From: a virus
Taxonomy: Duplodnaviria; Heunggongvirae; Uroviricota; Caudoviricetes
Reading direction: 5' to 3' (one strand)
DNA length: 64,000 nt
Virus record (IMG/VR): IMGVR_UViG_2778261540_000003
The notes under the pieces were generated by a model. The model did not search any database. It saw only the letters and a program-made list of their open reading frames with translations, and had not been told where the DNA came from. The position numbers and the translations under genes were made by a program. This document shows positions 11,523 to 12,954 of this stretch, in pieces; within the stretch, counting starts at the first letter, position 1, and every line of letters starts with the position of its first letter.

Positions 11523-12062
11523 CTACCACCAACTGCTAGCTTTCTTCTCTCTAGCTTTTCCTTCGCTTTGCAGTAAATCTTTACTTCCTGTAGAAATATT
11601 TCTATTTGCATCAGCCTCAGACTGAATTACATCTGTCTTAGCTGCTCTCTCCTTCAACTCCTGCTCTATAAAATCGTTTTCTCGCTGGACACGAGCCGCT
11701 TTTGCTTGCAGTTCGAGTTTCATGCTTTCGAGTTGCAGCTTGCGAAGCTCATCCTCATAAGCTTGATCTCGCTTCTTGTCATTTGCTAGCTCGGCTTCTC
11801 GTTTCGCTCTACGTTCATTTTCTGCAGCAACACGCTGTTTTTCGCGTGCAGCAGCGGCAGATGCTGCTTTTTCTCTTCTAATACGTTCAGCTTGTGCTTG
11901 TTGGCGAATAAGTTCTTTTCTGGCATCCTCAGCTTGCTGCTCTTTAGCTCGCCCTTCATTTTCCGCTTGAGCAATAGCAGCAATTTGACTTTGCAACGAG
12001 TTAGCCAAGGCAGTGCCTACACTAAACGTAGAAAAGATTAGAAATAAAATAATTTTATTCAT
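11523..12062 (-). CDS. Secreted coiled-coil protein (signal peptide plus K/E/A/R-rich helix)
   Basis: N-terminus MNKIILFLIFSTFSVGTALA looks like a signal peptide; remainder is a long charged helix ending SWW; AT-rich gene. Confidence 0.5.
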   Translation of the reverse strand: MNKIILFLIFSTFSVGTALANSLQSQIAAIAQAENEGRAKEQQAEDARKELIRQQAQAERIRREKAASAAAAREKQRVAAENERRAKREAELANDKKRDQAYEDELRKLQLESMKLELQAKAARVQRENDFIEQELKERAAKTDVIQSEADANRNISTGSKDLLQSEGKAREKKASSWW

Positions 12063-12065
12063 AAA

Positions 12066-12587
12066 TTATTTCTTTTCTGGACAAGTAGCATTTGGCTGAA
12101 TTCGAGTTTCATTATCTTTAGTTGAAATAAGCACAGCAAGCCCCGTTGTAAACTGGCATGCTTTACCAACTTGAGTTGAAGTGAACACCTTAGTTCCTTC
12201 TTTATAAGTCAGTGAAACACCTTCAACAATTGTTTTATCACTAACCAAAGAACCAGCCGCTGCACCAAGAGCCGCACCACCAGTACCGCCAGCTACAGCA
12301 CCCAGTGTCGATGTGCCTTTAACATTATAACCGGCAACGCCCCCAGCAACAGCTCCCAGTACCGCACCAAATGTCTGTGCCGCTTCTTTATTAGCTTTAT
12401 TATCAACTTTCACTTTAGCTGGAAGCACAGAGATAATATTGACTGTCTTTGTTTCCTGCTTCGAATTCAATTGAGCGGTATCATAAACATCGGCAGCATA
12501 ATCAGCACCGCTAGATTGACACCCAGAAAGAAGAATTGCAGATACAACAAGAGCGCATAAAGTATACTTTTTAGACATAAGAATCAT
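12066..12587 (-). CDS. Outer-membrane-type lipoprotein with glycine-zipper segment
   Basis: Lipobox LLSGC after a hydrophobic N-terminus (likely true start at the internal MSKKYTLC); Gly-zipper GAVLGAVAGGVAGY...GAVAGGTGGAALGAAAGSL; AT-rich. Confidence 0.55.
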   Translation of the reverse strand: MILMSKKYTLCALVVSAILLSGCQSSGADYAADVYDTAQLNSKQETKTVNIISVLPAKVKVDNKANKEAAQTFGAVLGAVAGGVAGYNVKGTSTLGAVAGGTGGAALGAAAGSLVSDKTIVEGVSLTYKEGTKVFTSTQVGKACQFTTGLAVLISTKDNETRIQPNATCPEKK

Positions 12588-12868
12588 CCCAGAAAAACAA
12601 AAACCGGCGAGAAGTTACCACGAGAACGGAAAGTAAACAAGAATACTCCCATTGACTTATATCAATTAATCAACTTTTTATAAGCTATCCCTAACTTATT
12701 GTGTATAGCTGAAAAGTCAGAGACAAGTTCACCATCTGCATTATTTCTTAAGTTAATAGTTTATTGCTAACTTAATTTATGTATCGACTATTGATATCCA
12801 TCTTAAAGTTACAATATCCCTCTGCATTATTTTTCATCACAAATAATATATCTATTGCACAACACTAA

Positions 12869-12885
12869 TCTGCTCTAATAAATTT
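12869..12885 (+). promoter_or_regulatory. C1-operator-like site upstream of the c4/icd/ant operon
   Basis: TCTGCTCTAATAAATTT, 15/17 match to the ATTGCTCTAATAAATTT motif repeated across the window; followed by TTGACC-N17-TATAGT promoter-like hexamers. Confidence 0.6.
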
Positions 12886-12954
12886 GTATTTTTAAGTCGC
12901 GAATGCTATCTTTTCACATCATATTGACCTTTTAATCGTTCAGGCTTATAGTGC

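Follow-up and report, generated by a model that had tools for sequence, protein, structure and literature searches.

A P7-type allele of the sim slot of P1-like phage-plasmids as a mobile copy of the bacterial yfgH–yfgI operon

It is almost certain that the two-gene cassette described here, carried by a P1/P7-type punavirus phage-plasmid, is a horizontally circulating and self-contained copy of the yfgH–yfgI operon of bacterial chromosomes. The window (the whole stretch of 64,000 nucleotides from the IMG/VR virus record IMGVR_UViG_2778261540_000003) holds the cassette in the variable ‘sim slot’ of P1-like phage-plasmids, and the interval represents the P7-type allele of that slot. Of the two genes, the first encodes an outer-membrane lipoprotein of the SlyB/YfgH family, whose helical hairpin is built on a glycine zipper, and the second a Sec-exported, almost entirely helical protein of the DUF5384 family. 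A preliminary description, made from the letters of the DNA alone, had noted two co-directional minus-strand genes, for proteins of 173 and 179 amino acids, preceded by a leader without open reading frames (ORFs). Both genes are indeed present, and there is no ORF of 40 amino acids or more in 12588–12930, where only ORFs of 20–29 amino acids occur. The parts of the allele, in window coordinates, are the following.

11495–12870, strand not applicable: P7-type sim-slot allele, 1376 bp without P1 homology, in place of P1 simC–simB–simA (1513 bp)
12066–12587, minus strand: yfgH-like outer-membrane lipoprotein, 173 amino acids (P7 upf50.5)
11523–12062, minus strand: yfgI-like DUF5384 protein, 179 amino acids (P7 upf50.0)
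12588–12868, minus strand: AT-rich non-coding leader, guanine plus cytosine content (GC) ~0.31, with the presumed cassette promoter inside

The YfgH-like lipoprotein

The product of the upf50.5-type gene is identical (100%) to P7 Upf50.5, which the P7 record (AF503408) describes as an ‘outer membrane lipoprotein of unknown function’, with a note citing its likeness to E. coli K-12. It is 67% identical to K-12 YfgH over 171 amino acids, that is, over its full length. The N-terminus, MILMSKKYTLCALVVSAILLSGC, contains the lipobox LLSGC, in which Cys23 is followed by Gln at +2; read from the sequence, the signal MSKKYTLCALVVSAILLSG before C-Q, with no Asp at +2, is one for outer-membrane sorting. 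Translation may instead start at the ATG at 12578 (M4). Cys23 is invariant across 43 homologues; also invariant in the family are Cys144, Cys169 and the glycines G74, G78, G82, G104 and G108, and there are runs of GxxxG/A. The preliminary reading of the protein as a lipoprotein with a glycine zipper is thus borne out. The zipper forms a helical hairpin at about residues 64–113, placed by AlphaFold2 (AF2) between strands on either side, with helices at 64–88 and 94–113. Confidence in the AF2 model is low (predicted local distance difference test, pLDDT, 54), and structural matches made with it are therefore supportive only.

Assignment to the SlyB family comes from the comparison of profiles. 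A profile of the 43 homologues matches the chain of SlyB determined by electron cryomicroscopy (cryo-EM; 7OJF) with E 1.2e-9 over its full length (residues 9–163 against 6–154). The best Foldseek match of the low-confidence model is likewise SlyB (7ojf_A; E 2.9e-6, TM score 0.51/0.60). A search of PDB sequences with each single cassette protein gave no match, SlyB being reached by the family profile alone, and a search of NCBIfam with the cassette proteins gave no meaningful match. The Pfam family Rick_17kDa_Anti matches the lipoprotein below the cut-off (E 0.0023), and 26 of the 43 family members match it at E≤1e-3. SlyB, a PhoPQ-regulated outer-membrane lipoprotein (7OJF/7OJG), is homologous at the profile level to the cassette lipoprotein over its whole length and has the same layout: a lipid anchor, beta strands, the glycine-zipper hairpin and a C-terminal beta part. 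The two differ in that identity is 24% by Foldseek and in that no DUF5384 partner gene accompanies SlyB. Neither YfgH nor SlyB complements the loss of the other, and their suppressors differ (bioRxiv 10.64898/2025.12.22.696046).

A more distant relationship may link the membrane module of the family to TraT, the lipoprotein that gives F-like plasmids surface exclusion and serum resistance, and which is anchored in the outer membrane by an oligomeric alpha-helical hairpin (9FSM). The Pfam TraT model (PF05818) scores 23.1 bits against the lipoprotein, where the cut-off is 31 (E 7.2e-5, residues 59–145), and it is found, below threshold, in 37 of the 43 family members at E≤1e-3. Using hhalign, the family profile aligns with F TraT with a probability of 86% and E 5e-6 (residues 74–147 of the lipoprotein with 119–210 of TraT, covering the membrane hairpin and the strands that follow it), a score that the Gly/Ala-rich composition may inflate. 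Foldseek does not relate the lipoprotein to TraT significantly (9fsm_A; E 0.28, TM score 0.21/0.17). TraT differs from the cassette lipoprotein in having an extracellular beta-sandwich ring, in its length (243 against 173 amino acids) and in lacking a DUF5384 partner.

It should be noted that databases name these proteins otherwise. In RefSeq and PHROGs (phrog_1277) the yfgH-like lipoprotein is called a ‘DNA methyltransferase’, as in P7 (NC_050152), SJ46 (NC_031129), RCS47 (NC_042128) and TL-2011b (NC_019445), and in phi456 (OR339795) the pair is named ‘minor tail protein’ and ‘tail tip protein’. These labels are propagated mis-annotations.

The DUF5384 protein

The upf50.0-type product is likewise identical (100%) to its P7 counterpart, Upf50.0, which is entered in AF503408 as a ‘membrane protein of unknown function’, again with a note on likeness to K-12. 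Pfam PF17358 (DUF5384) matches it with 147.8 bits against a cut-off of 25, over model positions 4–145 of 145, and it is 47% identical to K-12 YfgI over all 179 amino acids. As had been described, it begins with a signal peptide, is highly charged and helical, and ends in SWW. The signal is of the Sec type with a cleavable AxA site (between GTALA and NS), and the composition is 41% charged and 19% Ala, with the C-terminus aromatic. AF2 predicts one helix over residues 3–178 with a pLDDT of 87.6; the mature protein of ~158 residues would measure ~237 Å if the helix were straight. Residues 41–94 are variable and charged or Ala-rich, with few hydrophobic positions in heptad register, and residues 95–179 are conserved.

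The DUF5384 family is small. It comprises 312 clusters at 50% identity among 1.84 billion representatives, and its members are mostly ~160–230 amino acids long. A literature search found no paper naming DUF5384 or upf50.0/50.5, and none that deals with what the phage copy does. One protein of 409 amino acids with a C-terminal DUF5384 region (P0327) was considered as a fusion of the two partners and rejected, because it is a different coiled-coil fusion.

The pair as a unit and the chromosomal operon

In the cassette, 3 nt separate the stop codon of the lipoprotein gene from the start codon of the DUF5384 gene. A DUF5384 profile search returned 80 genomic loci, 79 of which had enough upstream sequence for adjacency to be tested, and in 79 of these 79 a yfgH-like ORF lies directly upstream on the same strand. 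The loci are from Enterobacterales, Pasteurellaceae, Pseudomonas, Aeromonadales, Photobacterium, Nitrosomonas, Acetobacteraceae and others. The two genes are therefore almost always encoded together, H before I.

A distant DNA search found a match of ~69% identity in 5420 of 5426 complete E. coli genomes; it is annotated there as yfgH (glycine-zipper lipoprotein) and yfgI (DUF5384), between guaA and yfgG. The K-12 operon, called srgI–srgL in S. Typhi, matches the cassette in its two genes, their order and their tight spacing. It shares with the cassette the lipobox, the glycine zipper, the two conserved cysteines, the DUF5384 C-terminal region with its aromatic end and a very AT-rich upstream region. 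The cassette differs from it in its location, the sim slot of a phage-plasmid rather than guaA–yfgG, and in belonging to a separate clade associated with mobile elements; because its leader is unrelated to that of the K-12 operon, its regulation probably differs also.

Most of what is known of the function concerns YfgH. The protein is found in the outer-membrane fraction, is induced by depletion of LpxC, LptD or BamA, and co-purifies with BamA, LptD, OmpF/C/A, LamB and TonB-dependent receptors; it has been modelled as SlyB-like rings (bioRxiv 10.64898/2025.12.22.696046). Deletion of yfgH causes sensitivity to sodium dodecyl sulfate (SDS) plus ethylenediaminetetraacetic acid (EDTA) and loss of outer-membrane proteins, a phenotype suppressed by clsA mutations, and mild or leaky overexpression of YfgH rescues defects in outer-membrane biogenesis, namely depletion of LptD and BamA (bioRxiv 10.64898/2025.12.22.696046). 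Genetic interactions of yfgH with lptD are aggravating, and loss of yfgH leads to vancomycin-induced bulging (PMC3219608). The S. Typhi operon srgIL is regulated by SdiA and acyl-homoserine lactone (AHL), and Salmonella Typhimurium has no yfgHI (PMC11619404).

The sim slot and its borders

Comparison with the P1 locus by blastn shows that P1 homology stops at 11494 and restarts at 12871; the foreign segment is therefore 11495–12870. According to the annotation of P1, simC, simB and simA occupy the same slot on the same strand. The segment is bounded by two conserved regulatory elements.

11474–11493, minus strand: late promoter LPsit of the pmgC-tub-pmgB-sit tail operon, with the -22 box AAATGACA and the -10 box TAGAAT, mapped from the P7 (AF503408) and P1 annotations
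12869–12885, plus strand: C1 repressor operator Oc4 (Op51), which matches ATTGCTCTAATAAATTT with 2 mismatches; the equivalent site is annotated in P7, there as the C1 operator of c4-icd-ant, and in P1

The left border is the -22 box of LPsit, in conserved backbone, and the right border is Oc4, the first element of the conserved immI backbone. All slot alleles compared share both borders; those of three other P1-like elements (L004, L005 and L007) break at ~11497–11499 and 12870/12871. The cassette thus sits between LPsit/pmgC and Oc4, on the strand of the tail operon, as sim does, which agrees with its earlier placement between the late tail promoter and immI, at the sim position of P1. The 11523–12930 interval previously delimited as the cassette holds up to 12870; the remainder, 12871–12930, is conserved immI backbone (the operator and the c4 promoters) and lies outside. 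The 1.6 kb around the cassette is 99.2–99.9% identical to P7, RCS47, SJ46, JL22, phi456 and several ‘P1’ isolates. Reference P1 matches this 1.6-kb query at the right end only, over roughly the last 130 bp. The alignment to P1 and P7 proposed at the outset therefore gives P7 genes that are 100% identical at the protein level and P1 homology only outside 11495–12870.

P1 Sim and the cassette have in common the genomic slot, the strand, the borders, low GC and products that are secreted envelope proteins. They differ in the number of genes (three against two), and an exclusion phenotype is known for Sim only. The earlier remark that the proteins do not resemble Sim stands: when the two cassette proteins were compared with SimC by BLASTP, the best E values were 0.044 (over 30 residues) and 5.0, neither of them significant, and a Pfam scan of SimA, SimB and SimC found no family in common with the cassette proteins. 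The sim genes are non-essential and dispensable for lytic growth (PMC10695390). That simABC is one of eight highly variable low-GC regions in P1-like phage-plasmids has been published (PMC9603915), and the slot is described likewise as a low-GC variable region in PMC6906374.

Base composition and the leader

The interval had also been described as markedly AT-rich, and a windowed calculation agrees. The GC of 11523–12930 is 0.398, against a mean of 0.477 (standard deviation 0.023) for the window, and 0.08% of equal-sized windows have a GC as low, the minimum being 0.395 at 11541. Most of the drop is accounted for by the leader (GC 0.309); the genes have a GC of 0.42–0.435, and the two alone lie at the 3.9% quantile. 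The next lowest 1-kb stretches of the window are 52601–53600 (0.386) and 62401–63400 (0.417), which are probably other published low-GC variable regions of P1-like elements.

The upstream regions of all family members examined, K-12 yfgH included, have a GC of 0.24–0.38, so that AT-richness characterises the family and not the variable slot alone. A comparison of the upstream regions of nine family members revealed no visible common promoter or operator motif beyond AT-richness itself, and the cassette leader and those of other copies are not homologous. The leader presumably has promoter activity. The sole consensus candidate in it has a -35 box TAGATA and a -10 box AATAAT at 12854–12826, and this sigma-70 candidate, with 9 of 12 matches, scores no better than shuffled sequences in a promoter scan of the leader. 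A sigma-E-like motif near the start codon was rejected for its wrong spacing and for a transcription start that would fall inside the ORF, and an upstream RcsB-like half-site was judged unconvincing. The leader contains a 15-nt direct repeat at 12732–12746 and 12818–12832, 86 bp apart, with the minus-strand form AAATAATGCAGA[G/T]GG (the two copies read AAATAATGCAGATGG and AAATAATGCAGAGGG); this repeat could be the binding site of a regulator, and it has no convincing match to the C1 operator. The structure predicted for the leader RNA is not significant (z -0.42), and an Rfam search of the leader gave no match.

Distribution, alleles and selection

Matches of at least 99% identity to the segment 11495–12870 exist in 11 phage records and 166 PLSDB plasmids, 22 of the PLSDB plasmids with the cassette being from Salmonella, and the exact cassette is present in 182 of the 5426 complete E. 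coli genomes (~3%). For comparison, the full P1 sim region occurs in 137 PLSDB plasmids, and the simA end alone in ~160 more. The cassette plasmids are overwhelmingly from animal and human isolates of E. coli and Salmonella.

Three divergent yfgHI alleles (100, 88 and 83% amino-acid identity) occupy the slot of P1-like elements. The second, in E. albertii, has amino-acid identities of 88% and 81% and is followed by three extra genes; the third (L182) is 83% identical and is followed by a DUF559/MTES_1575 gene. The latter gene (8380–9623 of L182) encodes ~415 amino acids, is restriction-endonuclease-like and has a weak PADLOC match (PDC-S37, E 1e-5), which hints that the slot can also carry candidate defence genes. 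Other occupants are two secreted proteins (gp34/35) in vB_EcoM-Ro157c2YLVW and three genes, one with an SH3 domain, in pRHB23-C01_3. Judged by eye, signal-peptide-like N-termini are present in nearly all slot products: SimA/B/C, Ro157 gp34/35 and two of the three pRHB23 genes. P1 SimA itself (52 amino acids; 3771–3929 of L002) matches the N-terminal ~36 residues, MRKLLLPLLFMAGTVNAASSVKEICTDYTKYLGHVY, of secreted proteins of 163–215 amino acids that are intact in Ro157c2YLVW and pRHB23-C01_3 (2130–2777 of L004 and 2649–3140 of L005); simA thus looks like the remnant of an earlier occupant.

Related pairs (~71–74% identity) are also found just past the tail-fibre and assembly genes of a prophage with tail genes of the P2 gpU/gpX/gpD type. 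These lie at two E. coli chromosomal sites, by yecD and by torT, and in Salmonella, and the same arrangement at the tail-fibre end is seen in three IMG/VR contigs. One further pair is on a ~100-kb Salmonella Rep3 replicon (L099) that is not identifiable as phage or plasmid. In a rough neighbour-joining tree, the alleles of P1-like elements and an E. coli island copy flanked by insertion sequences form one clade, sister to the prophage-end copies, and the copies borne by mobile elements stand apart from core E. coli YfgH. Between the cassette and either another P1-like allele or the chromosomal island copy, the ratio of nonsynonymous to synonymous substitution rates (dN/dS) is 0.06–0.10, and synonymous sites are nearly saturated. 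Purifying selection thus acts on the phage-borne genes, which are old and have diverged.

Some apparent phage copies are to be set apart. One type of prophage common in E. coli has its integration site between yfgI and guaA, so that ‘viral’ contigs, and the phage TL-2011b, include the host's own yfgH–yfgI. TL-2011b (JQ011317, 41366–42436), the sole phage-database match outside P1-like phages, was accordingly rejected as phage cargo, and about 56 of 80 IMG/VR matches (L123–L179) were not counted, being host yfgHI at the edge of prophages; most ‘viral’ database matches at 47% identity are of this kind. The apparent phage distribution of both PHROG families is inflated as a result.

The identity of the pair in P7 and its presence in hundreds of plasmids were already catalogued, as the variability of the slot was already published. 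What is added here is the exact extent of the replaced segment, the assignment to the yfgH–yfgI/SlyB family with its possible distant link to the TraT membrane module, the strict synteny of H and I, and the finding that copies which have diverged under selection exist as several alleles and in two or more phage lineages.

Possible roles of the cassette

The first interpretation, that an acquired envelope-acting module has replaced sim, is right in outline: P1 homology breaks at the borders of the slot, the products are a lipoprotein of the SlyB/YfgH type and a secreted helical protein, and the profile searches and structure prediction that had been suggested as checks return PF17358, the SlyB 7OJF profile and a single AF2 helix. 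The more specific proposals, exclusion or abortive infection, are unproven, and nothing points to abortive infection.

By analogy with the chromosomal operon, we give about an even chance to a role in which the cassette is expressed by the prophage and stabilises or remodels the outer membrane, a form of lysogenic conversion. In the plasmid-prophage state, transcription of the pair would start in its own AT-rich leader, which lies upstream of the late promoter and apart from the immI promoters that C1 controls. Like YfgH and SlyB of E. coli, the lipoprotein would assemble into outer-membrane rings that keep lipids and outer-membrane proteins together, and the long periplasmic helix would be an obligate partner that might, for instance, tether the ring from below or act as a spacer under it. 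The lysogen would thereby gain an extra module for stabilising or remodelling the outer membrane, or its only one where the host has no yfgHI, as in Salmonella Typhimurium. Such a module would raise tolerance of envelope stress in the form of detergent or bile, chelators and impaired membrane biogenesis. As a side effect or a co-selected benefit, other phages, colicins or conjugative DNA could enter less readily.

This role is favoured by the identities to YfgH and YfgI, the SlyB profile match, the adjacency of H and I, the dN/dS values and the literature on YfgH. It also fits the absence of yfgHI from S. Typhimurium, while Salmonella plasmids carry the cassette, and the secretion signals with which, by eye, every alternative occupant of the slot starts (two of the three genes in pRHB23). 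Several considerations weigh against it. Expression in the prophage state is inferred, and the sole promoter candidate is weak. Most E. coli already have yfgHI, so that a second copy would be of clear benefit only if it differed in regulation or specificity. All of the functional evidence is carried over from a paralogue that is 67% identical and comes from a single preprint; the sole YfgI phenotype is sensitivity to nalidixic acid, seen in yfgI mutants (PMC3536626). The AF2 model of the lipoprotein is poor, and ring formation and an interaction between H and I are extrapolations from the relatives. Finally, the sharing of the slot with sim argues at least as much for a role in exclusion.

Superinfection or surface exclusion, with the cassette as a functional analogue of sim, is the most serious alternative, although we consider it distinctly less probable. 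In this scheme the ring lipoprotein and its periplasmic partner would alter or sequester receptors, or obstruct the passage of the tail tube and DNA, and a P7-type lysogen would resist P1/P7-like or other phages, colicins or conjugation; the parallel is the co-option of TraT by F-like plasmids. The cassette takes exactly the place and orientation of simC/B/A, the alleles are alternatives that exclude one another, and the occupants all appear to be secreted. The DUF559/MTES_1575 gene with its weak PADLOC match lies beside a yfgHI pair in another P1-like allele. Outer-membrane morons of temperate phages of the Cor, Lom and Bor types usually lie next to tail-fibre genes, and the other phage context of the pair is this same place, the tail-fibre end of a prophage. 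The alignment of the lipoprotein family with the TraT hairpin points in the same direction, and TraT is a chromosomal ring lipoprotein that has repeatedly been captured by plasmids (PMC11733297). YfgH also binds phage receptors, namely OmpC/F/A, LamB and TonB-dependent receptors (bioRxiv 10.64898/2025.12.22.696046).

Set against this, the proteins have no significant similarity to SimC and no Pfam family in common with any Sim protein, and neither matches any family in PADLOC-DB 2.0 at E≤1. The extracellular domain of TraT is absent from the lipoprotein, in which the sole part that might be exposed at the surface is a hairpin loop of ~5 residues. The receptor of P1 and P7 is the lipopolysaccharide (LPS) core, not a protein. 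Nearly all E. coli carry yfgHI and yet stay sensitive to P1 and many other phages, and no exclusion phenotype has been reported for yfgH or yfgI. The morons Cor (phi80/N15), Llp (T5) and Bor (lambda) resemble the cassette lipoprotein as small phage outer-membrane lipoproteins that are not needed for lytic growth; they differ in being single genes that bind one receptor (FhuA) or give serum resistance. The PHROG match of Cor to the lipoprotein (E 0.022) covers residues 10–54 only, with no homology beyond the signal peptide.

A broader form of the same idea, somewhat more doubtful still, is that mobile yfgH–yfgI pairs make up a class of module, not recognised before, that serves exclusion at the level of the envelope or acts as ‘outer-membrane armour’. 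Temperate phages would repeatedly have captured from bacterial chromosomes a SlyB-like ring lipoprotein together with a helical partner of periplasmic length, and would use the pair as F plasmids use TraT, making the lysogen refractory to incoming phages or DNA. Repeated capture is suggested by the three alleles in the P1/P7 sim slot and by the copies at the tail-fibre end of another type of prophage.

Conversion of a virulence type appears improbable. The cassette would here give resistance to serum and complement or to antimicrobial peptides, like TraT, lambda Bor and Iss, with the benefit felt in animal hosts. The distant likeness to the membrane module of TraT, which gives serum resistance (PMC11733297), would agree with this, as would the origin of the cassette plasmids and the regulation of S. 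Typhi srgIL by SdiA and AHL. What the lipoprotein lacks, however, is the very part of TraT to which action at the surface is ascribed; the family occurs widely in environmental Pseudomonas, Nitrosomonas and Xenorhabdus, YfgH has no known serum phenotype, and the proposal largely overlaps with hardening of the outer membrane.

We think it very unlikely that the pair serves the lytic cycle, whether as a spanin-like or lysis-timing pair or by protecting the envelope during virion assembly. An outer-membrane lipoprotein with a helical protein of periplasmic length does bear a superficial likeness to the two-component spanins (Rz/Rz1), and there is a weak PHROG match to an Rz-like protein (E 0.038), which extends over the signal peptide only. 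The helical protein, however, has a cleavable AxA signal peptide and not a membrane anchor, the genes are far from the lysis cluster and not behind the late promoter, and in E. coli the orthologues belong to the core chromosome, away from any phage; P1, moreover, lacks the pair, and its sim genes are non-essential (PMC10695390). Least credible of all is that the pair is non-functional cargo in a slot that merely tolerates insertions: the slot is a hot spot of recombination in which many different contents are found (PMC9603915) and P1 simA looks like a gene remnant, but the selection analysis disfavours this, and both ORFs are intact and 99–100% conserved in more than 160 plasmids, with all family-invariant residues retained and the pair present in at least two phage lineages and several alleles.

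Neighbouring features

The backbone on either side of the slot contains three further elements.

11443–11489, minus strand: strong hairpin between the cassette stop codon and the pmgC start, an inverted repeat with a 12-bp perfect stem
12946–12998: a1b1 targets of C4 RNA, right of the slot
13066–13151: C4 RNA, right of the slot

The hairpin includes the -10 box of LPsit and the pmgC Shine–Dalgarno sequence and is conserved in P1. The minus-strand RNA of 11432–11525 folds with -29.4 kcal/mol (z -5.56), and none of 200 shuffled sequences was equally stable. It could insulate the tail operon, at the level of translation or transcription, from read-through out of the slot, and transcripts started at LPsit would be without its 5' arm. 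On the other side, the Salmonella small RNA isrK (Rfam) has a match on the plus strand at 12959–13040, with 47.9 bits against a gathering score of 50, which overlaps the a1b1 target region of c4; this sub-threshold match probably reflects the relatedness of c4-type antisense immunity modules. The C1 operator consensus has 14 sites with up to 3 mismatches in the window where 0.28 are expected (for example at 14538, 28740, 32016/32027, 48017 and 63036), which fits the dispersed C1 regulon of P1/P7.

Significance

As it is known now, the cassette is an accessory operon that has been catalogued, in a region known to vary. P1/P7-like phage-plasmids spread resistance genes and are common in E. coli and Salmonella of human and livestock origin. 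Should the cassette harden the outer membrane or exclude other phages, it would affect the fitness of lysogens in the gut, where bile and antimicrobial peptides are met, and also their susceptibility to therapeutic phages and the coexistence of P1-like elements. The cassette would be, in addition, a natural gain-of-function experiment for the poorly understood yfgHI module, especially for DUF5384, and an ‘outer-membrane armour’ function, if true, would provide the first functional handle on DUF5384/YfgI.

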